From the NCBI GenBank assembly GCA_036513095.1, contig DATBZR010000078.1:15475-79474 (forward strand): a stretch of 64,000 nucleotides of DNA. The letters run 5' to 3'. This DNA comes from Candidatus Dormiibacterota bacterium (GTDB taxonomy: Bacteria > Chloroflexota > Dormibacteria > Dormibacterales > Dormibacteraceae). The notes under the pieces were generated by a model, which was not told the origin of the DNA, made no database searches, and saw only the letters and a list, made by a program, of their open reading frames with translations. Positions 8,732 to 55,867 of this stretch are shown here, in pieces. How positions within the stretch are numbered: the first letter of the stretch is position 1; each line of letters opens with the position of its first letter. The position numbers and the translations under genes were made by a program.

Positions 8732-10003
8732 CTACGCCTGTATCGCGGACCTAAGACCAGCCTCGCTTGCGAACGGTCCGATCACCGCCATCTGTATCGG
8801 CCCCCGCAAAACTTCACCGGCGACTCGAAGGATGTCCGCGACGGTGACCGCGTCTACCAGCGCGAGCTCCTGCTCGACCGTGTTGATCTCGCCGAGCAAC
8901 AGCTCCTGGTAAGTGAGCCAGAAGGCGACGCCATTCGTGGTTTCCATCTCCAGGCGCAGACGTCCCTTGGTGAACTCCTTCGCCCTCTCGAGCTCATCCG
9001 AGGCCACCTCCTCGTCGCACAGGCGGCGCAGCTCACCCATCACCGCATGGACTGCGTCGACAGCCTTCTTCGGATCGACACCGAGATAGACCGCGACGTA
9101 GCCGGTGTCGCGATGTTTTTGCATGAAGCTGTGCACGTCGTACGCGATCCCGAGACGCTCGCGGATGTTCAGGAACAGCCGTGAGCTCATGCCCTCCCCC
9201 AACAGCGTGTTCAGAAGGTCGATCGCGTAGCGGTCAGGGTGCAGGTAGCTGTATGCCCTCACTCCAAGGCAGATGTGGGCTTGCTCGGTCTTCTGCCGGC
9301 GCACCATCACGTGCGCACCGTCGAGCGGGCCTGGAGCAACCGCCGCCACCTGGCCGTTCAGGCCTTCCGGCAGCGTGAGCCGCGGTCGCACGAGGTCCAG
9401 CACGACTTTCTCATCGAGGGACCCCGCCGCACCTATCACGACGTTCGGCAGGCGGTAGTGCGCATCGGCGTACTCGAGGATGTCGTCACGCGTCAGCCGG
9501 CTGACCGACTCTTGCGTCCCCGCGATGTCGCGCCCCAGCGGATGACCCGGCCACATCATCTCTTCCAACAGGTTCTGGACGTGATCCTGCGGCTGATCCT
9601 GGTACATCTTCAGCTCTTCCAGGATCACGGCACGCTCGCGTTCGATGTCTCCGGGATCGAGCTTCGAGTTCGACACGATGTCGAAGAGGACGTCCAGGCC
9701 GAGCTCCGTGTACTCCGACGGCACTCGCGTCCAGTACGCCGTCAACTCCTTGTCGGTGGACGCATTGATGAACCCGCCCACGCCTTCGATCGCGTCCGCG
9801 ATGTCCTTGGACGAGGGCCGCCTACGCGTCCCTTTGAAGAAGAGATGCTCGATGAAATGCGACACGCCGGCGAGGCGGTCATCTTCGAGTCGCGACCCTC
9901 CACCGAACATCGCGACGACGCTCGACGAGAGCCGTTCGGGCATCGCGGCCGTGACTAGCTTGGCCCCTCCCGATAGCGCGTGGACGTGATGCGCGGAGGC
10001 CAT
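8732..10003 (-). CDS. M16-family zinc peptidase (insulinase-like)
   Basis: HFIEHLFFKGT (inverted HxxEH zinc motif) and a typical M16 two-domain length of 423 aa. Confidence 0.85.
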   Translation of the reverse strand: MASAHHVHALSGGAKLVTAAMPERLSSSVVAMFGGGSRLEDDRLAGVSHFIEHLFFKGTRRRPSSKDIADAIEGVGGFINASTDKELTAYWTRVPSEYTELGLDVLFDIVSNSKLDPGDIERERAVILEELKMYQDQPQDHVQNLLEEMMWPGHPLGRDIAGTQESVSRLTRDDILEYADAHYRLPNVVIGAAGSLDEKVVLDLVRPRLTLPEGLNGQVAAVAPGPLDGAHVMVRRQKTEQAHICLGVRAYSYLHPDRYAIDLLNTLLGEGMSSRLFLNIRERLGIAYDVHSFMQKHRDTGYVAVYLGVDPKKAVDAVHAVMGELRRLCDEEVASDELERAKEFTKGRLRLEMETTNGVAFWLTYQELLLGEINTVEQELALVDAVTVADILRVAGEVLRGPIQMAVIGPFASEAGLRSAIQA

Positions 10004-10051
10004 GGGAGGGCCAGTATAGGACCGCTGGAGAACGTCCCTTCCGGGGCTGCT

Positions 10052-10327
10052 CTACGCGGCCGGGCCGCCTTCTCGAAGCGCGCCGAGCGCGGCGTAAAGG
10101 GTCATCGCCACGAAGTCGGCCGGCATCCCGTCGGACACCGCGTCCAGAGCCTCTCCGAGATACCGACGAACGTTGGCCACCTGGTCGACCTCGCTCAGCT
10201 CGAGGCAGTCGCGAATGGCTTCGGCGATCTCCGTTGGCGTGATGTCCTCATCGCCTGCGCCGTCCGCGACCGAGTTGACCAGCGCGATCGCTTTCCGGAT
10301 CCGCTCAGCGGCGGCCCGGCCTGGCAT
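10052..10327 (-). CDS. hypothetical small acidic protein
   Basis: 91-aa ORF in the gap between the jag and M16 genes on the same strand. No recognisable motif. Confidence 0.35.
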   Translation of the reverse strand: MPGRAAAERIRKAIALVNSVADGAGDEDITPTEIAEAIRDCLELSEVDQVANVRRYLGEALDAVSDGMPADFVAMTLYAALGALREGGPAA

Positions 10328-10336
10328 GGAACCGCT

Positions 10337-10987
10337 CTACTCGGCCGCCGACTTGCGGGGCCCGACGACGACGCGCCGCTCCGGCTCTTCGCCGATGCTC
10401 CCGCTTGTGACGTCCGGATCACCCTCGAGCGCAAGGTGGATCGCGCGGCGTTCGAACGGCTGCATCGCATCGAGCGTGATCGGGTCGCCCGTCATCTTGA
10501 CCTGGCGTGCGGCGCGCATCGCTATCTCGCGCACCGTGTGCTCCCTGCGCTGCCGGTAGCGCTCCACGTCAACGATGATCCGCTCGCCATCGGCGAGATG
10601 ACGGCCGACCATCACGTTCGTGACCGACTGCAATGCCCGCAGGGTCTCGCCTCGCCAACCGATCAGCGCACCCAGGTCGTGACCGCTGATGTCCAGGGTT
10701 ATGGGTTCGCTGCTTGGTCGCACCGTAACCTGCGCGCGAACACCCATATGCTTGAGGAGACCTTCGACCAGACCACGCGCAACCTCTGCTTTTCCGTTGG
10801 CAGGAGCGCCGGCAGAACCCACCGCGGCGGTGGCTGTTAGGTCGATCACGGTGACCTCGACCACGGCCTCATCGGCTGTCTCGCTGAGCACCCTGATGTC
10901 GACGTTCCTGCGGCTCTCTTTCAGTTCGATCAATGCGGCGTCAACCGCTTCGTCCACCGTGCGGCCGCGCCCTTCAGCGGAGCTCAT
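10337..10987 (-). CDS. jag: Jag/KhpB-type RNA-binding protein (Jag_N, KH, R3H)
   Basis: N-terminal EGRGRTVDEAVDAAL (Jag_N) and a C-terminal R3H-like ...FERRAIHLAL. Conserved position downstream of yidC. Confidence 0.85.
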   Translation of the reverse strand: MSSAEGRGRTVDEAVDAALIELKESRRNVDIRVLSETADEAVVEVTVIDLTATAAVGSAGAPANGKAEVARGLVEGLLKHMGVRAQVTVRPSSEPITLDISGHDLGALIGWRGETLRALQSVTNVMVGRHLADGERIIVDVERYRQRREHTVREIAMRAARQVKMTGDPITLDAMQPFERRAIHLALEGDPDVTSGSIGEEPERRVVVGPRKSAAE

Positions 10988-11017
10988 CGCAACTCACCTC
11001 TAACCCTCATTTCTGAC

Positions 11018-11908
11018 CTATCTCTTTGGTCTTCTAGGTTTGACGCCATTACCTGGCGGACTCTTCGGACCGCCGCCAGGTCCCTTCTTGGGCGGTGCGT
11101 CAGGTCCCTTCTTGGGCGGCAACGCGCCCTTCCCGTTAGAACCCCCCGACACGGTCCGTCTGAACCGCGCCGGCAGAACGTTTCCCCAGCCGACCACGAA
11201 GCTCTGCTGAATGATACTGACGCAGTTGCCTATAAACCAGTAGAGTCCCAGGCCCGCCGGGACGTTCAGGGCGAAGTAGCCGATCATCAGCGGCGACAGC
11301 CACACCATCGTGCGCTGCATCTGCTGCGTCTGCAGCTCCTGCTCCGTCGGGTTGGGGGCCGGCGGCATCTGGAGCATGCGCGACTGGATCAGCGTGGTGA
11401 GCGCCGCGAACAGCGGAAAGATCAGGAAAGCGAGAACCGGGATCGGGAGCCCGGGGATCATCAGGTGGTGGTTGGGGTTGTCGTTCAGGTTCGAGATCCA
11501 GAGGAACGGCTGTGGTGGATGGCCTGCCTTGGCGAAGCCCTGGAAGACGTAGTAGAGCGCAGTCAGGATGGGCAGCTGCACGATCAAGGGGAGGCATCCG
11601 ACCAGGCCTCCGAGCGGGTTGACCCCGTGCTCCTGGTAGAGCTTCATCATCTCCGCGTTCAGCTTCGTGGGGTCTTTCTTGAACTTCTTGCGAAGGTCGG
11701 CGACCTGCGGAGCCAGCTTGCGCTGCTCGACCATCGTCTTGCGCTGCGTCACCAGCTGGAACTGCTGAAGGGGTGCGAGGACCAGGCGGATCATGATCGT
11801 CAGCACGATGATCGCGACCCCGTAGGCCCCGATCGCCTCGATCACCGGAACCCCCTGCAGGTGGACGTACAGGTAGTTCAGCAGGCCCGCCAGAGGGTGC
11901 TCGACCAC
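11018..11908 (-). CDS. yidC: membrane protein insertase YidC
   Basis: Contains QQFQLVTQRKT...LYQEHGVNPLGGLVGCLPLIVQLPI..NVPAGLGLYW, plus a Lys/Pro-rich C-terminal tail. Confidence 0.9.
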   Translation of the reverse strand: MVEHPLAGLLNYLYVHLQGVPVIEAIGAYGVAIIVLTIMIRLVLAPLQQFQLVTQRKTMVEQRKLAPQVADLRKKFKKDPTKLNAEMMKLYQEHGVNPLGGLVGCLPLIVQLPILTALYYVFQGFAKAGHPPQPFLWISNLNDNPNHHLMIPGLPIPVLAFLIFPLFAALTTLIQSRMLQMPPAPNPTEQELQTQQMQRTMVWLSPLMIGYFALNVPAGLGLYWFIGNCVSIIQQSFVVGWGNVLPARFRRTVSGGSNGKGALPPKKGPDAPPKKGPGGGPKSPPGNGVKPRRPKR

Positions 11909-12004
11909 GGCAACCCATATGTCGTGGATCGGTGACAGAAAATTGCCGATGCTCTTGATGAGATCGCTCAGCTTGTTTTCTCCGATGAAGGGTGGAAGGC
12001 CGGA

Positions 12005-12214
12005 TCAGGGGACAGGATCGTAGCCGCCCTTGGCGAATGGATGGCAGCGCGCGATCCGCGCCGCTCCCATCCAGCCACCGCGCAGCCAGCCATACCTCTC
12101 GATCGCTTCATACGTGTAGTGGGAGCAGGACGGGTAGTAGCGGCACGAGGGCGGAAGGACTTTGGAAAACGACATCTGGTAACCCCGTATCAGAGCGAGG
12201 AAAAGCCTTGTCAC
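12005..12214 (-). CDS. yidD: membrane protein insertion efficiency factor YidD
   Basis: 69 aa with [19 protein letters not shown]...RCHPF..GGYDPVP. Confidence 0.9.
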
Positions 12215-12570
12215 GTGTTCTGCTTCGACAGCCGGAGCGCGGCCTGTTCCGCCTCGGCCACAAGCTCGGCGAAAGCGACTTCCAGGGCCGCCGGCCGGGC
12301 GATGAGAACCACGTCATATCGTATTCCCACGCTCGTTAGGGGCGAATCAGCGCCGAGCAAGCTGACGCGAGCCAGCTCGCGGAGGCGCCGCCGAGCCCGG
12401 TTGCGGTCGACCGAGCCCTTGAGGGCTCGGCTGACGGTTACTCCAACGCGGGTTTCGCTTCGCGCACTGGGGATGGCGAACGCGACCAGGGCGCGGCCGC
12501 TGTAAAACCGCTTGCCGCTCATCGCGGCCTGGAAGTCGCCGTGCCGGCGCAGCCGGATGCGCCGTTTCAT
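12211..12570 (-). CDS. rnpA: RNase P protein component
   Basis: Basic 119-aa protein with the RNR-like motif [15 protein letters not shown]. Overlaps the yidD start. The ATG at 12568-12570 is directly abutted by the tandem repeat and has no Shine-Dalgarno. Confidence 0.85.
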
Positions 12571-12750
12571 GTCTGCACTGCGCCCTGCGCGCGACCGGCG
12601 GTCTGCACTGCGCCCTGCGCGCGCCCGGCGGTCTGCACTGCGCCCTGCGCGCGCCCGGAGGTCTGCACTGCGCCCTGCGCGCGCCCGGAGGTCTGCACTG
12701 CGCCCTGCGCGCGCCCGGAGGTCTGGATTGCGCCCTGCGCGCGCATTCCT
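12571..12750. repeat. tandem repeat of six 30-bp units (GTCTGCACTGCGCCCTGCGCGCGCCCGGAG) filling the rpmH-rnpA spacer
   Basis: Units start at 12571, 12601, 12631, 12661, 12691 and 12721. Units 3-5 are identical. Unit 2 has one substitution and unit 1 two, both near the 3' end. Unit 6 is degenerate (GTCTGGATTGCGCCCTGCGCGCGCATTCCT). The units are contiguous, with no spacers. Confidence 0.95.
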
Positions 12751-12771
12751 ATTAGCGCGCCTGGCCGCCGC

Positions 12772-12906
12772 CTAGGCGGACAGCCGCTGGCGACCCTTTC
12801 GTCGGCGGTTCTGCACGACCCGGACGCCGCCTTTCGCGCTCATCCGGCGGAGGAATCCGTGAACGCGCCGGCGATATCGCTTCTTGGGTTGGAAAGTACG
12901 CTTGAT
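12772..12906 (-). CDS. rpmH: 50S ribosomal protein L34
   Basis: Not in the ORF track. Manual minus-strand translation gives (I)[43 protein letters not shown]-stop(TAG 12772-12774). The codon aligned with the universal Met1 is ATC (12904-12906). The only other in-frame candidate after the upstream TGA is CTG at 12919-12921. Confidence 0.85.
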
Positions 12907-13211
12907 GGTGGCCCCCTGCAGGAGTCAGTAACTGGCGAGAACCGCGGTAGTGTACCGGAGCAGGAGCCCATCGATCGTGATAGCGCTCATGTCACTTCAT
13001 CGCTAAGGTATATGCCTTGCGATGTCCACAGGGCTTTGCTACACTGCCCGCCCGGAAGCAGCCAAAGTAAGGGCTCGGGTAACGAACCAGTACAGATTGC
13101 ACCAATCGGTCCCACTTATCGTTATAGCTAACCCGGGCATAAACGTATAACACCGCTTCCTGGTTTCGGGATCGATCGGATGTGGGATTTCGGACGGCTA
13201 GGCAGCGCTAG

Positions 13212-13244
13212 CCTGTGGAAATCCGGTCCGCTCTTTTCCACAGG
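13212..13244. promoter_or_regulatory. inverted pair of DnaA-box-like sites forming a 10-bp perfect inverted repeat
   Basis: CCTGTGGAAA (13212-13221), then 13 nt, then TTTCCACAGG (13235-13244). Confidence 0.5.
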
Positions 13245-13369
13245 CATCAAGGAGGCGGAGCTCATGGTCAGAGAGCTTCGGGTTGAACCTGCAATCGCGG
13301 CGGCGCGATTTGCGGGGTCCCCGCGCAAGCGGTGACGCAGGGTAGGTCGGACGAGGAGTTGGCCCCAGG

Positions 13370-44818: not shown

Positions 44819-45571
44819 TTAACCGATCGTTGACTTCCAGCCGCCGCGCCCTTTCCGCCGGATCGCGAGCACGCCCGCGAGTATCGAGAGCGCGATCTCA
44901 GCCGGCGTGATGGCGCCCAGGTCGAGCCCGACCGGGCTCTGGATCCGAGAGATGACGTCCTCGGCCACGCCCTTCGCGCGCAGAGCCTCGAGGTGGTGGC
45001 CTGTGTGACGGCGGCTGCCTACCAGCCCGATGAACCGAGGCTCGAGCGGGAGGATCGCTTCCAGGGCCTGGACCAGGTCGGGCGCGTCATGGTCGGTGTG
45101 GACGACGTAGAGGTCCGTGCCGAGATCTAGAGGGAGCTCGTCCAGGGACCTGATGATCGGGGGTGGCCAACCGACGTCCTTGATTCGCTCGGGTCGCGTC
45201 TCGACCAGCAGGGCTGTGAAGCCGATCTGTCGCGCCCAGTCCACCAGGGCCCTCGCCACCGGCGTCGCGGAGAAGACCAGCAATTGGGGAGGCGCTTCGT
45301 AGGGCTCCAGATACACCTCGATGCTGCCCAGCTCGTGGCGGTAGGTGCGCACTTGGGGGGAAGCCGATTCCGCGACTTGCGGCGCGTCGGCCAGCGCGGC
45401 GGAGTCGAACTCGCTGCAGCCGAGTGTCCCGGCGATGGCGGCACTTCGTGACATCAGGAGCTTCGCCCCAGGCCTGGACGGAGGCCGGCCGTCGACTTTG
45501 ACCACCGTGGCGAGTACGACCTCCTCGCCTCGAGCCAGGCGCTGACCAAGCTCTTCTTCGACGCTAGGCAC
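44819..45571 (-). CDS. XdhC/CoxI-family molybdenum-cofactor insertion/sulfuration accessory protein
   Basis: N-terminal XdhC_CoxI pattern (VVLATVVKVDGRPPSRPGAKLL) and a C-terminal Rossmann-like part (LLVFSATPVARAL...IGLVGSRRH...PVGLDLGA). Confidence 0.8.
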   Translation of the reverse strand: MPSVEEELGQRLARGEEVVLATVVKVDGRPPSRPGAKLLMSRSAAIAGTLGCSEFDSAALADAPQVAESASPQVRTYRHELGSIEVYLEPYEAPPQLLVFSATPVARALVDWARQIGFTALLVETRPERIKDVGWPPPIIRSLDELPLDLGTDLYVVHTDHDAPDLVQALEAILPLEPRFIGLVGSRRHTGHHLEALRAKGVAEDVISRIQSPVGLDLGAITPAEIALSILAGVLAIRRKGRGGWKSTIG

Positions 45572-46706
45572 GCGCCGAAGCCCTCGTCAGCACCGACCGG
45601 ATGATTTCCGAAGCGCGCGACACCTCGTCGTCCGTCGTGGCATAGCCGGTGGTCACGCGGAGGCTGCCCAGGGCCTGGTCGAGGTTCAAGCCCATCGCAA
45701 CCAGGACGTGCGACGGATCCAGCGAGCCGGAGGCGCATGCGGATCCGCTGGACGCGGAGACTCCGGCCAGGTCGAGCGCCAGCAGCATGTCTTCACCGCG
45801 ACGATCGGCGAACGCACAGGTGGCGAAGTTGGGCAACCGGAGATCGGCGCCGGTGGGCGTTCCGCCCAGCTCCACGAGGAGGGCGCGCAACGCTGCCGCG
45901 TGCCGAGCTGCGACCGTGGATCGGCGCCCCCGGTCCCGAGCGCTCGTGGCGAGGGCGGTCGCGGCGGCGGTCGCGGCGGCGACGTCCTCCCGGCCGGCTC
46001 GGCGGCCCCATTCCTGCGGACCGCCATAGATCAGAGGGTCGATCCGCACCCCGTCTTTGACGAAGAGGATTCCGCCGCGCCCAGCGCCCAGCTTGTGACC
46101 GCTGAACGAAACCAGGTCTGCTCCCTCGGGGATGCCGATCCATCGTGGACCGGCGCAGGCGTCGACGTGGATGAGCGCTCCGATCTCATGCGCGCGGGCG
46201 ATGATCGCGGCCACCGGCTGGATGGTCCCGACCTCGTTGTTGGCGAGCCCGATCGAGACCAGCTCGGCAGAGGAGGGGATGTCGTACGGGTCGGCGCGGC
46301 CCGTTCCGTCGACTCTTGCCACCACGACCGGGTGGCCTTCCGACTGCAGGCGGCGGGCCGCTCCGAGCACCGATTGATGCTCGGCCGCCCAGGTCATCAC
46401 GACACCATGCCTCGGTAGGCGCTTCGCGGCGCCGAAGAGCGCGAGGTTGACGGACTCGGTGCCCGAGCCGGTGAACGATATCTCCGTGCGGTCCGCGCCA
46501 AGCGCTTGCGCGGCGAGGTCACGAGCACCGTCGAGCGCGGCACGAGCGGCGCGTCCATCGGCGTGTGGGCTCGAGGGGTTGCCCTCCGGCAGGTCGCGCA
46601 CCGCCGCGCGGACTTCCGGGAGGACGGGCGCGGACCCCGCGTCGTCGAGATAGATGCGGCTAGGGGAGTCGCGGGCCGAGCCCCTCGGCGGATCTTTGGC
46701 GTCCAT
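45564..46706 (-). CDS. class V aminotransferase, NifS/IscS-type cysteine desulfurase
   Basis: Contains ...FTGSGTESVNLA..., PLP Lys SGHKL, and the active-site loop SSGSACASG. 8-nt overlap with the xdhC-like gene. Confidence 0.88.
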   Translation of the reverse strand: MDAKDPPRGSARDSPSRIYLDDAGSAPVLPEVRAAVRDLPEGNPSSPHADGRAARAALDGARDLAAQALGADRTEISFTGSGTESVNLALFGAAKRLPRHGVVMTWAAEHQSVLGAARRLQSEGHPVVVARVDGTGRADPYDIPSSAELVSIGLANNEVGTIQPVAAIIARAHEIGALIHVDACAGPRWIGIPEGADLVSFSGHKLGAGRGGILFVKDGVRIDPLIYGGPQEWGRRAGREDVAAATAAATALATSARDRGRRSTVAARHAAALRALLVELGGTPTGADLRLPNFATCAFADRRGEDMLLALDLAGVSASSGSACASGSLDPSHVLVAMGLNLDQALGSLRVTTGYATTDDEVSRASEIIRSVLTRASARA

Positions 46707-49677: not shown

Positions 49678-49743
49678 GAACTCAGAGCCTTCGGCGTGAG
49701 TTCGCGGGGACCCCGTCTGAATATCGGGCATCCGCATATCCTG

Positions 49744-50241
49744 ATGCGCGTGACACAACGCCTCACGCACCTGGATGACAAAGGGGCCGCGCGCATGGTT
49801 GACGTCGCCGGCAAGGCTTCGACCGTACGTGAGGCGCTCGCCGAATGCGTCGTGCGCATGGCGCCGGCGACGTTGCGTGCGGTCAAGGCAGGGACCGCTA
49901 AGGGCGATGCGCTCCAGGTCGCGCGGGTGGCCGGCATCATGGCGGCGAAGAAGACTCCGGATCTGATCCCGCTCACCCACCCACTCCCGCTCACGAGCGT
50001 GCGCGTCGACTTCGAGTTCGTCCGCGGCGGGGTGCGCGTGCTGGCCCAAGCTCGTGTCACCGGCCAGACCGGCGTCGAGATGGAGGCGCTGACGGCAGCC
50101 GCCGTCGCCGGGCTGACCTTGATCGACATGACGAAGGGAATCGAGAAGGGCGTCTACCTCGAAACGGTTCGCCTGCTCGAGAAGTCGGGTGGGCGTTCAG
50201 GGACATGGAAGCGCCCATCAGCAACCGCCCGAAAGAAATGA
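49744..50241 (+). CDS. moaC: cyclic pyranopterin monophosphate synthase accessory protein MoaC
   Basis: ATG 49744 gives [21 protein letters not shown]...[27 protein letters not shown]...GVEMEALTA. Confidence 0.92.
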
Positions 50242-50717
50242 GCACGGCGCACGTGATCACCGTCAGCGATGGAGTTTCGGCGAAGACAAGGGAGGACGAA
50301 AGCGGGCGGGCCCTGGTGCGGATCCTGAAGAACGCCGGCTTCGAGGTCTCGGAACCGCTGGTTGTACCCGATGATCAACAGCGCATTGCCGGCGCCATCG
50401 TCGCGGCCGCTGCGAGCGGAGCTGATCTCGTCGTCACGACCGGCGGAACCGGACTCGGCCCCCGCGACGTGACACCTCAGGCGACGTCAACTGTGATCGA
50501 CTTCGAAGTGCCTGGCATCGGGGAAGTGATGAGACGCGCGGGTGCCGCGAGCACACCGATGGCAGCGCTGTCCCGTTCGATGGCCGGCGTGCGCGGACAA
50601 ACGCTGATCATCAACGTGCCGGGCAGCCCGAAGGGCGCGGCCGAATCCCTCGAGGCGGTCATGCCGACGCTTGCCCACGCGATCAGGCTGCTGCACGGCC
50701 AGACGTCACACGAGTGA
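50238..50717 (+). CDS. mog: MogA/MoaB-family molybdopterin adenylyltransferase
   Basis: ATG 50238 overlaps the moaC stop (ATGA). Contains VITVSDG...[18 protein letters not shown]...INVPGSPKG. Confidence 0.88.
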
Positions 50718-51397
50718 ACCTGAACGCCGACCTCGGAGAGGGCGCGGGCGACGATGAGGCGATCCTGGCGCAGGTCGACAGCGCCTGCGTCGCCTGCGGC
50801 GTCCATGCGGGGTCGGCGTCGATCAGCATCGAGACGGTGCGGCGATGCCATGCCCTGGGCGTAGAGGTTGGTGCGCACCCCGGCTATGACGACCGTGCCA
50901 ACTTCGGTCGAGTGGAGGTACCCCTCTCGGCAGACGAGATCGGGGAGCTTGTCGCGTTTCAGGTCGGGGGCCTGGCCGCGCTCGGTCCGCTCGCTTTCAT
51001 CAAGCTTCACGGCGCCGTTTACCACCGCTGCCAGGTGGACCGCGCCGCCGCCGATGCTGTCGCCCGCGTCGCGAAACGACACGGCGCAGGCCTGGTGGGC
51101 CAGCCTGGTTTCGAGATCGTCGCTGCCGCGGCGCGCGCCGGCATACCCGCATACAGGGAGGGATTTGCCGATCGCCGGGTGCTTCCTGACGGAACCCTCG
51201 CGCCGCGGCACGAACCCGGCTCGGTGCTCGAACCTCAACGCGCAGTCGAGCAGGCGTTGCAGTTCGCGCGCAGCGGGCGCTACGACACGATCTGCGTCCA
51301 CGGCGACTCGCCAGGCGCGGCGCAGATCGCCGCGGCCGTGCGACTTGCATTTGCGGAAGGCGGTATAGCCACGAGCCGGCTGGCCGGCCGCAGGTGA
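50714..51397 (+). CDS. pxpA: 5-oxoprolinase subunit A (LamB/YcsF family)
   Basis: Contains [19 protein letters not shown] and GAHPGYDD. Confidence 0.88.
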
Positions 51398-52200
51398 GTC
51401 TGTCCATTCGCGAGCTCGCCGAGATCGAGGACCTGCGCGAGCTGGCGGAGCTGTTCGCCGTGGTCTGGGGACGCCCCGGCGAGCTTCCGATCAACTCGGA
51501 CATCCTGAAGGCGCTCGCGCATTCCGGAAACTACGTGTCTGGGGCGTACGTCGACAAGAAGCTTGTCGGTGGCCTGGTCGGATGGTTTGGAGGCGTGCCT
51601 CCGCAAGAGCTGCACTTGCATTCGCACATCCTCGGGGTGCTGAATGGCAGCGATGCGCAAGGCCTCGGGTCGCAGCTGAAGCAGCACCAGCGCCGCTGGT
51701 GTCTCGCGCGAGAGGTCAAGGTCATGCAGTGGACCACCGACCCGCTCGTTCGACGCAACGCGTACTTCAACCTCACCAAGCTTGGCGCGCACGCGCGGGA
51801 GTACCTCGTCAACGTCTACGGCGAGATGCGCGACGAGATCAACGCGGGCGAAGAATCGGATCGGCTGCTCATCACCTGGCTGCTCGATTCGGAATCCGCG
51901 CTCGCCGCTGCGGCGGGACGTGCGCTCGAGCCATCCGTCGAAGACCTTCAGCGGGAGGGCGCCGTCATCGCGCTGTCGGTTGGAGACGCCGGTGAACCGG
52001 TGGTGATCCGATCTTCCGCGCGTGTCCTTCTATGTCAGGTGCCTGACGACATCGTCGCGCTCAGGCGCTCCGATCCCCGGCTCGCGCGTTCGTGGCGCCT
52101 GGCGCAGCGCGAAACGTTCACCGATGCGATCGCCGCAGGCTACGAGGTGAGCGGGGCGACGCGATCGGGATGGTACGTGCTGGATGCCGCGGCTAACTAG
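51394..52200 (+). CDS. hypothetical protein, possibly GNAT-fold acyltransferase
   Basis: 268-aa ORF overlapping the pxpA stop. Contains ...GVLNGSDAQGLGSQLKQHQRRW.... The family assignment is weak. Confidence 0.45.
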   Translation: MSLSIRELAEIEDLRELAELFAVVWGRPGELPINSDILKALAHSGNYVSGAYVDKKLVGGLVGWFGGVPPQELHLHSHILGVLNGSDAQGLGSQLKQHQRRWCLAREVKVMQWTTDPLVRRNAYFNLTKLGAHAREYLVNVYGEMRDEINAGEESDRLLITWLLDSESALAAAAGRALEPSVEDLQREGAVIALSVGDAGEPVVIRSSARVLLCQVPDDIVALRRSDPRLARSWRLAQRETFTDAIAAGYEVSGATRSGWYVLDAAAN

Positions 52201-52209
52201 ACTCTTCTC

Positions 52210-52689
52210 GTGCTGCAGGTTGGCGACAAGGCCCCGGAGTTCAAGCTACCGACGACCGGAGGTTCCGAGCTAACCCTCGCGGACGCGCTCCAGAAGCACA
52301 AGGCGCTCGTCTTCCTCTTCTATGTGCTGGATTTCACGGGTGGTTGAAAGACGGAGTTGACCGAGTTTCGGTCAAGGCACGAAGCAGCCGTCGCCGACGG
52401 CATCGGCATCTACGGAATCAGCGTCGACTCGGTGTTCTCGCACCAGGCATTCGCCAAGGAGCTGGGCGGCCTGCCGTACGAGCTGATCGCGGACTTCGAG
52501 CGCAAGATGGTCACCGACTACGACGTGCGTCGAGACGACGTCGAAGGGTACTCGGGAATCCCGCGCCGCACGGTTTTCGTGATCGATGGCAGCGGGACCA
52601 TCACGTGGACCTGGATCACCTCGCGCGAAAAGCCGCAACCCGACTACGACCTCGTGATCGAGGAGGCTCGAAAGGCGGCGGGCATTTGA
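52210..52689 (+). CDS. AhpE/Bcp-like peroxiredoxin with in-frame TGA (candidate selenocysteine) at the peroxidatic position
   Basis: GTG 52210 gives VLQVGDKAPEFKLPTTGGSELTLADALQKHKALVFLFYVLDFTGG-[TGA 52345-52347]-KTELTEFRSRHEA...GISVDSVFSHQAFAKE...RRTVFVIDGSGTI. The track lists only the C-terminal 110 aa (TTG 52357) in the same frame. TGA aligns with Cys of the canonical DFT..C..E motif. Confidence 0.7.
52357..52375 (+). promoter_or_regulatory. SECIS-like stem-loop downstream of the in-frame TGA
   Basis: TTGACCG-AGTTT-CGGTCAA is a perfect 7-bp stem with a 5-nt loop containing GU. The stem starts 9 nt after the TGA. Confidence 0.5.
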
Positions 52690-53180
52690 ACGCTCAGCTC
52701 CACCGGATCGAGACTGAGTGGAACGAGCTGGCCAAGCTCGTGAACCAGCTGCAAGATGCTGACGGCCTGACCCAGGTCGGAACCGATGGGTGGACGGTCA
52801 AAGACCACCTGGCGCACGTCGCTGCCTGGGAGCACTCGCTGTTGGCCCTGGTCGAAGGTCGCGACCGTTCGCTGGCGATGGGTCTTCAAGAGTCGCCGCA
52901 AGAGATCGATGCGATCAACGAAGCAGTCAGAAAGGTGCACTCGACGGACACCGCTGAGGAGGCGCTCGGTTACTTCCGCGACGCACACGCGCAGCTGATG
53001 TCCGCGCTCGGAAAGCTGAGCGACGCCGACCTCCAGAAGCCATACAGCCACTTTCAGCCGGGCGACCCGGATGAGAAGCGGCCGGTGATCGAATGGGTCG
53101 CGGGCAACACCTACGAGCACTACGCCGAGCACATCGATTGGATCAATCAGCTCTTGAGCGAGTCGAGCGCCACCCGCTGA
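52686..53180 (+). CDS. DinB-superfamily / ClbS-like four-helix-bundle protein
   Basis: TTG 52686 overlaps the peroxiredoxin stop. Contains WTVKDHLAHVAAWEH...NTYEHYAEHIDWI (His-rich DinB-like motifs). The upstream part of the track ORF is out-of-frame shadow over the peroxiredoxin. Confidence 0.55.
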   Translation: MNAQLHRIETEWNELAKLVNQLQDADGLTQVGTDGWTVKDHLAHVAAWEHSLLALVEGRDRSLAMGLQESPQEIDAINEAVRKVHSTDTAEEALGYFRDAHAQLMSALGKLSDADLQKPYSHFQPGDPDEKRPVIEWVAGNTYEHYAEHIDWINQLLSESSATR

Positions 53181-54082
53181 GCCGCGCGCATTCGCAAGGC
53201 GGCCTCGATGGTGACCTCCGCGAAAGTCAGCTCATCTCCTGGCATCAGCTGAGCGGCCACGGGCAGAGCGGCGCCGGCGACCGTGGCGACGACGGGATAG
53301 CCACCCGCGGTCCCGTGGTCGGCCATCAGGAGGATCGGCTGGCCGCTGCGCGGCACCTGCAACGCCCCGAACACCAGGCCGAAGGAAAGCAGCTCGTCTC
53401 CTGAGAGCTCGAGCCTCGGGCCCTCGAGCCGGTAGCCCATCCGATCCGCATCGCGGCTGACCTGGAACGCCGACCCGAACAGCGCCTTGTGGCTTTCCGT
53501 GCCGAGACGAGTGACATGGGGACCCCCGATCGCCGCCAGGGTGTGGTTGGCGTAGTCGGGAAGCTCGTGCAGGGCGAGGTGGCGGCCGGAGATCGCGGGC
53601 GCAGCTTGCTGCCCCGCAACGGAGATGACGTCTCCCGCCGACAGCCGGCGTCCGTGCATACCACCCCGCGCGAGAAGCAGGTTGGTCGACATCGAGCCAA
53701 GCCACCGGTCCCCGGCAATGGCGCCGGCCACCGCGATGTAGCACCTGGCGCCCCAGCGCCGTCCGGCGAATCTGAGCACATCGCCTTCGCTCACGAACAC
53801 GCCGGTCCACATCGGCACCGGCCGGCCGTTCACGTGAGGGCCGAAATCGGCGCCCGTGATCGCGACCAGGGATGGTCGCAGGGCGACCAGCTCAGGACCG
53901 CTCAGCGTGCATTCGAGCGTGGCCGCGCCCTCGTCATTGCCGGCCAGCAGGTTGGCCGCCCTGTGCGCGAAACGATCCATCGCGCCCCCCGAAGGGACGC
54001 CGGCAGCCATCGCGTTCGGACGTCCGAGATCCTGGATCGTCGTGAGGAGCCCGGGCTTTTCCACGTGGAAGACCTCGCTCAT
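53147..54082 (-). CDS. pxpC: 5-oxoprolinase subunit C (KipA / allophanate hydrolase subunit 2 family)
   Basis: Contains PGLLTTIQDLGR, GVP.GGAMD and GGYP. Confidence 0.85.
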   Translation of the reverse strand: MSEVFHVEKPGLLTTIQDLGRPNAMAAGVPSGGAMDRFAHRAANLLAGNDEGAATLECTLSGPELVALRPSLVAITGADFGPHVNGRPVPMWTGVFVSEGDVLRFAGRRWGARCYIAVAGAIAGDRWLGSMSTNLLLARGGMHGRRLSAGDVISVAGQQAAPAISGRHLALHELPDYANHTLAAIGGPHVTRLGTESHKALFGSAFQVSRDADRMGYRLEGPRLELSGDELLSFGLVFGALQVPRSGQPILLMADHGTAGGYPVVATVAGAALPVAAQLMPGDELTFAEVTIEAALRMRAAQRVALDSLKS

Positions 54083-54735
54083 CCCTGGGCGGCGAAGAAC
54101 TTGACCCGGTCGCCGGCACGGAAAAGGGAGGGCGGATCCGAGTCGGGCAGGAAGAGCTTGACGGAGGTTCTTCCAAGGAGATGCCAGCCTCCAGGCGTGG
54201 CGAGCGGATAGATTCCAGTCTGCCGGCCCGCAATCGCGACCGAGCCTGCGGGCACCTTCGTCCGCGGCACCTGGCGGCGAGGCAGCTCGAGCTGTTCCGG
54301 CAGCGGCCCGAGATAGCCCCAGCCTGGGACGAAGCCGACGAAAAAGACGCGGTAGATGGGCTTTGTATGGATCTCGACGATCTTCGCTACATCGAGACCG
54401 AGCACCGCCGAGACAGCCTCGAGGTCAGGTCCGTCGTAGACCACCGGTATCCGATGAAGGCGGCCTGGTTCGGCCATCGGCGGTCGCCTGGAAGCGAGTC
54501 GCCTGATCGCGGTGGTGAGGGCATCGTGCGATGTCTGGTCCGGGTCGAAGTGGACAGTGACTGTCGAGTAGCCGGCGATCGCCTGGCGCACATCGCGCCG
54601 CTTCTTCAGCGCCGCAGCCAGAGCGATCGCTCTCGTATTGAGGGCGGTATCAAGCCGTGTGCCCAGCTCCGCCAGGAGCGCGGCCTCACCGAGCGGGTGA
54701 GTTCTGACCTTTGCTGTCGAGCGCTGCGCTGGCAT
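54079..54735 (-). CDS. pxpB: 5-oxoprolinase subunit B (KipI / allophanate hydrolase subunit 1 family)
   Basis: Contains ...VTVHFDP..., IPVVYDG.DL, GF.PGWGYLG and GSVAIAG.QTGIYP. Confidence 0.85.
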   Translation of the reverse strand: MPAQRSTAKVRTHPLGEAALLAELGTRLDTALNTRAIALAAALKKRRDVRQAIAGYSTVTVHFDPDQTSHDALTTAIRRLASRRPPMAEPGRLHRIPVVYDGPDLEAVSAVLGLDVAKIVEIHTKPIYRVFFVGFVPGWGYLGPLPEQLELPRRQVPRTKVPAGSVAIAGRQTGIYPLATPGGWHLLGRTSVKLFLPDSDPPSLFRAGDRVKFFAAQG

Positions 54736-55342
54736 GTGCGCTCACAAGAATGGCGTAGAGAACACCCGGCACGATGCCCACGAAGACGAGCCCGACGCAC
54801 GCCAGCCCGATCGCCCATGCCGTGACGATCGCGGCGGCCGCGAGGTTCCAGGTCGTGAAATCTCGTCCGACGGACCTGATCGATGCGCGAATGTCGAACA
54901 TGTCGCCCGCCCGACCGGAATGTGCGAACCGAGCGGTTGCGTGCGGCATGTGCAGCAGAAGGAGGAGCCCCCACGGGAGCGCGAGAAGGAAGAGCGCCAC
55001 GGTGTGGGAGTAGAGCTGGGCAACCGGCGCGTCGGTTGTGTGCCACAGATGTGCGTCGTAGAGCCATCCCGCGAAGGGATTGACGAGCAGGGCGAAAGGC
55101 GCGGTGAACAGCACCACGACGACCGTGGCCCAGAAACCATCGGACAAGAGCCGCACCGACAGCGTCCAGGGCGGAGGGCCGCCCGTGGCGTCGAGCTCAG
55201 CTGCTCTGGTGGCCGCGATGGCGTAGCCGAGGAGCGGGAGGAACGCGATCGGCAGCAGGAACACCATCAGGAGACCGGTGATCCATTTCGATTTCCACGC
55301 GCCCCGAAACGGCCACGAGAAGGATTGCGCGACCACCTTCAT
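54686..55342 (-). CDS. DUF4013-like polytopic membrane protein
   Basis: 218 aa with 5-6 hydrophobic helices and the N-terminus SFSWPFRG..W..K. Confidence 0.5.
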   Translation of the reverse strand: MKVVAQSFSWPFRGAWKSKWITGLLMVFLLPIAFLPLLGYAIAATRAAELDATGGPPPWTLSVRLLSDGFWATVVVVLFTAPFALLVNPFAGWLYDAHLWHTTDAPVAQLYSHTVALFLLALPWGLLLLLHMPHATARFAHSGRAGDMFDIRASIRSVGRDFTTWNLAAAAIVTAWAIGLACVGLVFVGIVPGVLYAILVSAHASAALDSKGQNSPAR

Positions 55343-55366: not shown

Positions 55367-55867
55367 CTAAAGCAGCGAGTCGATCGCCCCTACGAGCTTA
55401 GGATCTTCGGGGACGACCTTCGAGCGGAAGCGCCGGACGACCTTGCCGTCGCGCCCGATCAGGAACTTCTCAAAGTTCCATTTCACGTTGCCGGCCTTGC
55501 CGGCGTCATCCGCAGCCTCGCTGAGGATCTCGTAAAGCGGGTGCTGGTGGGAGCCCTTGACGTCGAGCTTGGCGAACAGTGGAAACGTGACCCCGTAGTT
55601 CCCGCTGCAGAACTCCTGGATCTTTTCAGCCGAGCCAGGCTCCTGGTTGAAGAATTGGTTGCACGGAAAGCCCAGCACGACGAAGCCGCGATCCGCATAG
55701 CGCTCGTTAAGCGCCTGGAGACCGGCGTACTGGGGAGTGAAGCCGCAGCGCGAAGCCACGTTGACCGCAAGCACGACCTTGCCCTCGTATTCGGAGAGCC
55801 GGGCAGGTTTGCCATCCAGTTTCGGCAGCTCGATCTCGTAGATCGAACGCGCTACTTCCTGAGCCAC
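55367..55867 (-). CDS. gpx: glutathione peroxidase (Cys type)
   Basis: Contains NVASRCGFTPQY, LGFPCNQF and WNFEKFL. Confidence 0.92.
   Translation of the reverse strand: MAQEVARSIYEIELPKLDGKPARLSEYEGKVVLAVNVASRCGFTPQYAGLQALNERYADRGFVVLGFPCNQFFNQEPGSAEKIQEFCSGNYGVTFPLFAKLDVKGSHQHPLYEILSEAADDAGKAGNVKWNFEKFLIGRDGKVVRRFRSKVVPEDPKLVGAIDSLL

Follow-up and report, generated by a model that had tools for sequence, protein, structure and literature searches.

The window analysed here, 64,000 nucleotides of contig DATBZR010000078.1 from the Candidatus Dormiibacterota assembly GCA_036513095.1, carries at 52210-52689 a peroxiredoxin (Prx) gene that is very probably a real and systematically mis-annotated selenoprotein gene, its in-frame UGA at the position of the peroxidatic cysteine being read as selenocysteine (Sec). 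The kind of enzyme is already known, and Sec-containing peroxiredoxins with a TxxU motif constitute no new system; it is the lineage that is new. With high confidence placed in Sec as the reading of this codon, one feature that stands out is its phylum-wide fixation, without a close Cys orthologue, in an aerobic soil lineage not earlier tied to selenium.

The gene is complete on the plus strand. From GTG 52210, frame 1 reads VLQVGDKAPEFKLP...FYVLDFTGG, meets a stop codon, resumes with KTELTEFRSRH... and ends at the terminal TGA 52687-52689; the translation in full begins VLQVGDKAPEFKLPTTGGSELTLADALQKHKALVFLFYVLDFTGG up to the internal stop and continues as KTELTEFRSRH...AAGI up to the final one. 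The TGA at 52345-52347 is the sole internal stop of the frame, and GTG 52210 is the first possible start because an in-frame TAG at 52198-52200 bounds the frame upstream of the Prx. The program-made list of open reading frames (ORFs) contains only a fragment of 110 amino acids (aa) from TTG 52357. An earlier reading of the window, made from its letters and this list (hereafter the sequence-only reading), had pointed out the fragment, had located the missing N-terminus from GTG 52210, broken only by the TGA, and had placed that TGA on the peroxidatic Cys. The fragment is indeed in the list, the translation agrees to the base, and the TGA aligns with the Cys of A. pernix BCP, of AhpE and of the nearest full-length homologues. 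With the stop replaced by Cys, the resulting protein of 159 aa matches the Pfam family AhpC-TSA (PF00578) with an E value of 4.7e-32 over profile positions 1-123 of 124, scoring 111 bits against a gathering cut-off of 26. The N-terminal piece is sometimes called as an ORF of its own, of 45-50 aa, with a weak AhpC-TSA match.

Orthologues were collected from metagenome-assembled genomes (MAGs) of Dormibacterota and from metagenome contigs. One genome per species was scanned, which yielded 39 close loci, of which 37 have an intact N-terminal end. Together with the window, three JGI sequences and four divergent metagenome lineages, the 37 loci form a set of 45 distinct sequences reaching down to 56% protein identity; a first alignment held 41 sequences and a later one 45. 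Codon 46 is TGA in every one of the 45, and TAA, TAG, TGC or TGT in none. In the window and in all 37 complete species-level loci the rest of the frame is uninterrupted and well conserved, and the orthologous genes start at the same position, with either GTG or ATG. The identical 110-aa fragment was found on eight independently assembled contigs, including one of the NCBI MAG GCA_036733745.1.

The orthologous loci are labelled Candidatus Dormibacterota, Dormibacteraeota or Dormiibacterota, or bear the older label "Chloroflexi bacterium", used for AD3 bins, and a few soil-MAG bins with other phylum names hold the same synteny. Prx contigs with Dormibacterota synteny occur in SMAG bins named Vicinamibacterales, Eisenbacteria, Nitrosotalea (an archaeon), Verrucomicrobiia, Sulfotelmatobacter and Limnocylindria (loci L010, L016, L021, L026, L032, L035 and L036). 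Their Prx is 78-94% identical to that of the window, and these contigs are probably mis-binned.

Protein databases hold this family in fragments. Among the best 120 matches, with the window protein or a divergent orthologue as query, the only ones that are not C-terminal fragments are the JGI proteins P0001, P0012 and P0017, and more than 230 clusters at 90% identity represent the same C-terminal Prx fragment. The expectation that standard pipelines would annotate the gene as truncated was borne out, the entries being "peroxiredoxin/redoxin" fragments of 110-125 aa. Since some callers output the N-terminal piece separately, the family appears as two unrelated-looking sets of fragments; P0292 (109 aa) and P0264 (79 aa), for example, are N-terminal pieces called as their own ORFs, which end in ...VLDFTGG and carry spurious N-terminal extensions. 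The three JGI exceptions show Trp at the site (DFTGGW or DFTPGW), their DNA has TGA there, and such entries could mislead active-site inference based on alignments.

A filter-free search of 1.84 billion cluster representatives, with the JGI homologue P0001 as query, revealed a gap in identity: the fragmentary relatives lie at 57-82%, and the best full-length Cys proteins reach at most 43%. The nearest full-length homologues carry Cys exactly at the TGA column, as in FYPADFSTPCRTEL and FYLLDWTSVCTKEM. The sequence-only reading had suggested looking in homologues for either Cys or TGA plus a hairpin at this column, and the comparison gave both: within the clade, TGA accompanied by a paired hairpin core in 45 of 45 sequences, and Cys in the distant full-length homologues.

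Selection was assessed as the ratio of nonsynonymous to synonymous substitution rates (dN/dS), calculated by the Nei-Gojobori method over 820 sequence pairs, 805 of which were usable for codons 2-45. The ratio is 0.13 at a dS of 0.93 for codons 2-45, upstream of the UGA, and 0.17 at a dS of about 0.9 for codons 47-150, downstream of it. Both halves are equally constrained coding sequence under purifying selection. No conserved restart codon follows the UGA: an ATG at codon 48 occurs in 11 of 41 sequences, and a CTG at codon 50 in 23. Composition scans for other TGA-interrupted genes left the Prx as the only one that looked genuine; GC3 filters fail to split sense from antisense frames at 66% GC.

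Downstream of the UGA lies a hairpin that had been described from the window as a perfect 7-bp stem with GU in its loop. This hairpin is present at 52357-52375 and folds as 7-8 base pairs (bp) at -9.4 kcal/mol, but conservation is confined to its inner 5-6 bp: the outer U-A pairs are found in only 12 and 23 of the 41 sequences, and a sixth pair, A-U, closes the loop in 32. The inner five pairs (52359-52363 with 52369-52373) form base pairs in all 225 cells of the 45-sequence alignment; pair 1 occurs as G-C in 41 sequences and as U-A in four, pair 2 as A-U in 38, U-A in six and G-U in one. The observed covariation score was reached by none of 500 shuffles, sliding the 3' arm by 1-3 columns lowers pairing to 5-60%, and RNAalifold recovered the same five pairs. 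The stem exists in three versions, GACCG/CGGUC, GUCCG/CGGAC and UUCCG/CGGAA, and the steps between them alter the encoded amino acids in each arm (Thr to Ser; Ser to Thr or Asn), so that the protein sequence has given way to preserve an intact helix.

Taken alone, the hairpin is weak. At the spacing of a bacterial selenocysteine insertion sequence (SECIS), 2.2% of all TGA triplets in the window have a hairpin with 7 or more uninterrupted bp and a G early in its loop, and the local fold is unexceptional, with a z-score of only -1.36 over 61 nucleotides (nt). It is conservation in 45 orthologues that lifts the hairpin far above chance. According to the published model of the bacterial SECIS (bSECIS; PMC13188914, Fig. 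2), the loop has 3-9 nt with G[G/U] in the first positions after the N1-N2 closing pair, the upper stem has 4-16 bp, the distance from UGA to loop is 16-37 nt, and the minimum free energy is at most -7.5 kcal/mol. The window element shows the loop A-GUU-U, a stem of 5 conserved bp (7-8 in the window itself), a UGA-to-loop distance of 16 nt and an energy of -9.4 kcal/mol, in agreement with the model on all four counts. In addition, the core stem begins 11 nt after the UGA, equal to the measured spacing of the upper stem of E. coli fdhF, and the hairpin has the position and loop of a bacterial SECIS that had been ascribed to it. The 19-nt hairpin taken in isolation has energies between -5.7 and -9.4 kcal/mol in the orthologues, some of which thus lie above the energy limit of the model on the hairpin alone. 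No further gene with this hairpin turned up, as the motif CCGAGTTNCGG was not seen 3' of a TGA.

Synonymous sites around the UGA are also frozen. A single codon is used in all 41 sequences for Gly45 (GGT), Glu49 (GAG), Glu52 (GAG) and Arg54 (CGG). Thr51 is ACC in 37 of 37 sequences, whereas Thr43 uses all four codons, and Phe53 is TTT in 32 of 41, in contrast to Phe37 (TTC in 37 of 41) and Phe42 (TTC in 40 of 41). The lowest five-codon synonymous diversity of the gene falls on codons 51-55, at 0.18, where the gene as a whole averages 0.42 (p = 0.015). Because these sites are frozen and the stem pairs compensate each other, the RNA element is tied to the UGA. The fixed GGT-UGA context may reflect competition with RF2, the identity of the P-site tRNA, or an unrecognised part of the recoding signal. 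In the same context (window 52342-52348), the base directly 3' of the UGA is A in 41 of 45 sequences, and GGC predominates at the two Gly codons compared further downstream (64 and 66), unlike the invariant GGT of Gly45.

Among proteins of solved structure, the best relatives are archaeal-type BCP proteins, led by A. pernix BCP (2cx3/2cx4; E value 1e-24, 90.5 bits, residues 2-158), with the Sulfolobus Bcp proteins next among the PDB matches. T43-G-G-U46 and R120 align with the catalytic Thr, peroxidatic Cys and Arg of A. pernix BCP and are invariant in the orthologues. The Pro of the PxxxTxxC pattern is replaced by Val39 (52324-52326) in all orthologues (FYVLDFTGGU); this does not disqualify the protein as a Prx, because the position varies in the nearest Cys homologues too (Leu in P0222, Ser in P0231). 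The window Prx has no Cys at all, and the same holds for 39 of 40 orthologues. On these alignments the window protein is classed as a BCP/PrxQ-like peroxiredoxin, and it would be a 1-Sec enzyme that needs an external reductant.

The AhpE-like assignment offered by the sequence-only reading was not upheld, as AhpE (1xxu), at 30% identity and 49 bits, lies outside the best 60 PDB matches, which BCP leads. Membership of two known selenoprotein models was rejected as well. No NCBIfam model matched at its cut-off; PrxU (NF040737) scored 48.8 bits against 270 and Prx-SUH (NF045827) 40.2 against 298, and the window protein has the motif TxxU rather than the CxxU of Prx-SUH and contains no Cys.

In the proposed mechanism, UGA-46 would not be read as a stop during translation. 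The hairpin, with its core 11 nt downstream and a loop A-GUU-Y in which G and U are exposed, would act as a bacterial SECIS and recruit SelB-GTP-Sec-tRNA(Sec) to the ribosome, leading to insertion of Sec in T43-G-G-U46. The selenolate, assisted by Arg120, would reduce H2O2 or organic hydroperoxides and be converted to selenenic acid. No resolving Cys is available, because the protein is without any cysteine, and the enzyme would have to be regenerated by an external thiol reductant. A low-molecular-weight thiol may serve in this role, to judge from the thiol-dependent DinB/MDMPI-like neighbour and the 5-oxoprolinase genes. That the UGA at the peroxidatic position is read as Sec by means of the downstream hairpin, the central proposal of the earlier reading, is supported by all comparative tests run.

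Peroxiredoxins with Sec in a TxxU motif (PF00578 / COG1225) were reported in the Sargasso Sea survey (PMC1088965) and are covered by a review (PMC13188914), so that the earlier remark that Sec-containing peroxiredoxins exist is correct: the TxxU family (COG1225) has been catalogued since 2005. The 2026 review lists them among the established selenoprotein families, with PrxU of Eubacterium acidaminophilum as the experimental case (PMC13188914). The window Prx shares with the survey family its Pfam family, a predicted Sec in place of the peroxidatic Cys in T-x-x-U, a bSECIS-type hairpin just 3' in the coding region, and widespread Cys homologues. Unlike the survey family, it comes from the soil phylum Dormibacterota and has no Cys orthologue within 43% identity; unlike the PxxxTxxU pattern, it has Val for Pro, and no NCBIfam selenoprotein model covers it. 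As translated with Sec, it carries the defining motif of the family, in which it is placed by motif and description and not by the survey sequences.

Other known systems differ from the window gene in distinct respects. PrxU is likewise a Sec thiol peroxidase, with Sec experimentally shown at the peroxidatic position, but belongs to another Prx subfamily, whose NF040737 model has 233 positions. A. pernix BCP shares with the window Prx the Thr, the peroxidatic position, the Arg and a C-terminal tail of the form "...PDYD.V..EA.K"; it has Cys rather than Sec, and a second Cys five residues on (CtkelC) where the window protein has Thr51. AhpE of M. tuberculosis is a 1-Cys Prx of similar length whose FTGIC aligns with FTGGU, but its identity to the window protein extends over 133 residues with the C-terminal third unaligned, a weaker match than those to BCP and Prx1/AhpC. 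Prx-SUH and the Prx-like UxxC selenoproteins resemble the window Prx as thioredoxin-fold members of the AhpC/TSA superfamily, and differ from its TxxU in having CxxU or UxxC motifs. As for the RNA element, the E. coli fdhF SECIS is also a hairpin within the ORF, with an upper stem 11 nt after the UGA and a small apical loop exposing G-U. The window element differs in having no bulged U, the loop A-GUU-Y instead of GGUC, and 5-6 conserved bp with no conserved lower stem. In E. coli fdhF, a minimal upper stem-loop of 17 nt suffices for SelB.

Several observations weigh against Sec as the residue inserted at codon 46. The conserved hairpin is very small, at 5-6 bp, three orthologues have a local energy of only -5.7 kcal/mol, above the cut-off of the model, and the covariation probably amounts to only two evolutionary events. 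No Rfam match was obtained for the whole window at gathering thresholds or for 52200-52700 at E values up to 10; Rfam does not capture short bacterial SECIS elements. A Cys orthologue was not found inside the clade, the closest full-length Cys proteins standing at no more than 43% identity, which is unusual for selenoprotein families. Furthermore, selA, selB, selD and tRNA-Sec were not found by tblastn with E. coli SelA, SelB and SelD or by ARAGORN in the window and about 1.4 Mb of related loci; their absence from these loci says little, because the loci represent the same 20-kb region in many species. None of 120 SelA loci retrieved by a metagenome scan with the SelA motif GDKLLGGPQAG, many of them with selB, selD or tRNA-Sec, could be assigned to Dormibacterota, and the literature searched nowhere links selenocysteine, selenium or selD with Dormibacterota or AD3.

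Assignment of the SelA loci was attempted by several routes. Tetranucleotide, codon-usage and Markov classifiers were without power, as even the non-homologous part of the window was not assigned to Dormibacterota by them. The SelA loci and the Prx-bearing MAGs have no overlap in whole-genome shotgun accession prefix and no shared orthologues. The best SelA candidates were rejected as Dormibacterota on their cluster names and gene contexts, which correspond to a Mycobacterium MAG, Coriobacteriia, a WhiB-linked actinobacterial locus, a TonB-receptor neighbourhood and a hypersaline anaerobe-like locus. A selD-selA-selB cluster at about 9240-13349 of hypersaline and other metagenome contigs (L237-L242) has a SelD with AIRS domains called at only 261-302 aa, possibly because the gene caller cut short a protein that contains Sec; the cluster is unrelated to the window organism.

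These gaps give some room to a recoding that does not involve Sec, in which the hairpin would stimulate read-through, or would prompt a suppressor tRNA, near-cognate or dedicated, to insert another residue (Cys, Trp, Gly or Arg), with no need for SelA, SelB, SelC or SelD. It draws on the failure of every search to tie Sec machinery to the phylum, on the minimal size of the conserved hairpin and on the lack of a close Cys orthologue. However, an active Prx needs Cys or Sec as its peroxidatic residue, and the simpler TGC or TGT codons for Cys are seen in none of the 45 orthologues; moreover, the geometry fits the SelB-type bSECIS model with the fdhF spacing, and Sec at TxxU in a Prx has an established precedent. 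Such recoding is regarded as improbable. The same low probability attaches to its boldest form, in which Dormibacterota would decode this UGA by, for example, a dedicated suppressor or allo-tRNA that brings in Cys or some other residue and is guided by a minimal 15-nt hairpin, a new type of phylum-wide and site-specific recoding. Much more likely is the milder situation of an aerobic, oligotrophic soil phylum that is obligately selenium-dependent for one peroxidase and has no Cys back-up orthologue.

Termination at the UGA would instead leave a 45-aa peptide, a re-initiated fragment of about 110 aa, or both, as a pseudogene or as a non-catalytic or two-piece protein. All pipelines annotate the locus in this way, with fragments of 110-125 aa and sometimes the additional short ORF, and an ATG does stand two codons past the UGA in the 11 sequences noted above. 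But purifying selection is equally strong on both halves across a phylum-level radiation, which excludes a pseudogene; no start codon after the UGA is conserved, the downstream fragment would be without the peroxidatic residue and Thr43, no stop other than TGA (neither TAA nor TAG) is seen at the site, and the frozen synonymous sites and compensatory pairs mark an RNA element tied to the UGA. A split or truncated gene is accordingly very unlikely, slightly more so than recoding with another residue. Reassignment of TGA to Trp or Gly, as in genetic codes 4 and 25, could appeal to the W in P0001, P0012 and P0017, yet their DNA reads TGA, and a Prx with Trp or Gly as its peroxidatic residue would be inactive. 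TGA has not been reassigned, because it is the commonest local stop, ending 14 of the 22 neighbouring called genes, and is also the final codon of the Prx in 29 of 40 orthologues; stop usage thus refutes a code-4 reading just as selection on both halves rules out a pseudogene. An assembly or sequencing error is excluded by the eight independently assembled contigs and by TGA in 45 distinct sequences, and the chance that either reassignment or error accounts for the codon is negligible.

The Sec reading has consequences for annotation and for the biology of the phylum. Hundreds of database clusters are cut-off "peroxiredoxin/redoxin domain" fragments, a few of them with Trp, which the NCBI curated selenoprotein models miss; a dedicated model would mend the annotation for the whole phylum. 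It implies that Dormibacterota (the former AD3) use selenocysteine and rely on selenium for part of their peroxide defence. Members of this phylum are widespread in nutrient-poor soils, permafrost and Antarctic deserts and are known only from MAGs, and most Sec-rich lineages are anaerobes. The element itself, with a 5-bp stem, an A-GUU-Y loop, 11-nt spacing and an invariant GGU, is close to a natural "minimal SECIS" and could serve recoding studies and selenoprotein engineering.

The features of the locus and of the related JGI contigs are collected in Table 1.

Table 1. Coordinates of the Prx gene, its recoding elements, its neighbours and the Trp-translated JGI homologues (window positions unless a contig is named)
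Feature	Position	Strand	Remarks
Complete Prx gene, 159 codons plus stop	52210..52689	+	GTG start, UGA-46 taken as Sec, terminal TGA; Pfam PF00578
N-terminal 45 codons, including Thr43 of TxxU	52210..52344	+	Not picked up by ORF or gene callers; dN/dS 0.13
Gly45 codon GGT just 5' of the UGA	52342..52344	+	GGT in 41/41; columns G7 G8 T9 invariant in the 45-sequence alignment
In-frame UGA in the column of the peroxidatic Cys, putative Sec codon	52345..52347	+	TGA in 45/45 distinct orthologues; Cys in homologues
Extended hairpin UUGACCG-AGUUU-CGGUCAA, two extra U-A pairs	52357..52375	+	-9.4 kcal/mol; outer pairs not conserved
Conserved hairpin core GACCG-AGUUU-CGGUC, 5 bp (plus A-U closing pair in 32/41)	52359..52373	+	225/225 cells paired
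pxpA (LamB/YcsF)	50714..51397	+	Conserved upstream neighbour
DinB_2 / MDMPI_N-like gene	52686..53180	+	Overlaps the Prx stop (TTGA, 52686-52689); about 60% of orthologous loci
pxpC (CT_A_B) and pxpB (CT_C_D)	53147..54735	-	Conserved convergent downstream neighbours
Cys-type glutathione peroxidase (ASRCGFT)	55367..55867	-	Minority of loci
Trp-translated Prx on JGI short contigs	L089:326-805, L090:324-806, L091:335-826		Proteins P0001, P0012, P0017; translated with an alternative genetic code

The order of the locus is MoaC, MoCF, PxpA, a 268-aa ORF with weak GNAT similarity, Prx and the DinB_2/MDMPI_N-like gene, followed on the opposite strand by PxpC, PxpB, DUF4013 and, in some loci, the glutathione peroxidase. 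The constant neighbours of the Prx are the three 5-oxoprolinase subunit genes, between which it always lies, and this suggests co-regulation with gamma-glutamyl or 5-oxoproline metabolism. The block from MoaC and MoCF (MogA-like) through PxpA and Prx to the reverse-strand PxpC, PxpB and DUF4013 is strictly conserved (window 49696-55342, L009-L047 and L095-L102). The overlapping DinB-like gene and the nearby Cys-type glutathione peroxidase, from which an oxidative-stress neighbourhood had been proposed, are both present in the window, but each accompanies the Prx in only part of the orthologous loci.

The 268-aa ORF (51394-52200, plus strand) ends 9 nt before the Prx start and in the same frame. 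Its GNAT match is below threshold, at 19 bits against 20.7, and it has no NCBIfam match. It occurs in most loci and is missing in the divergent clades L042-L044, L095, L099, L100 and L102, where the Prx directly follows pxpA or MoCF. Further upstream, with no selD nearby, the window holds at 44819-46706 on the minus strand an XdhC/CoxI-family gene overlapped by an Aminotran_5 gene (NifS or cysteine-desulfurase-like). Such a pair matures molybdenum hydroxylases, and it resembles the pairs discussed for selenium-dependent molybdenum hydroxylases.

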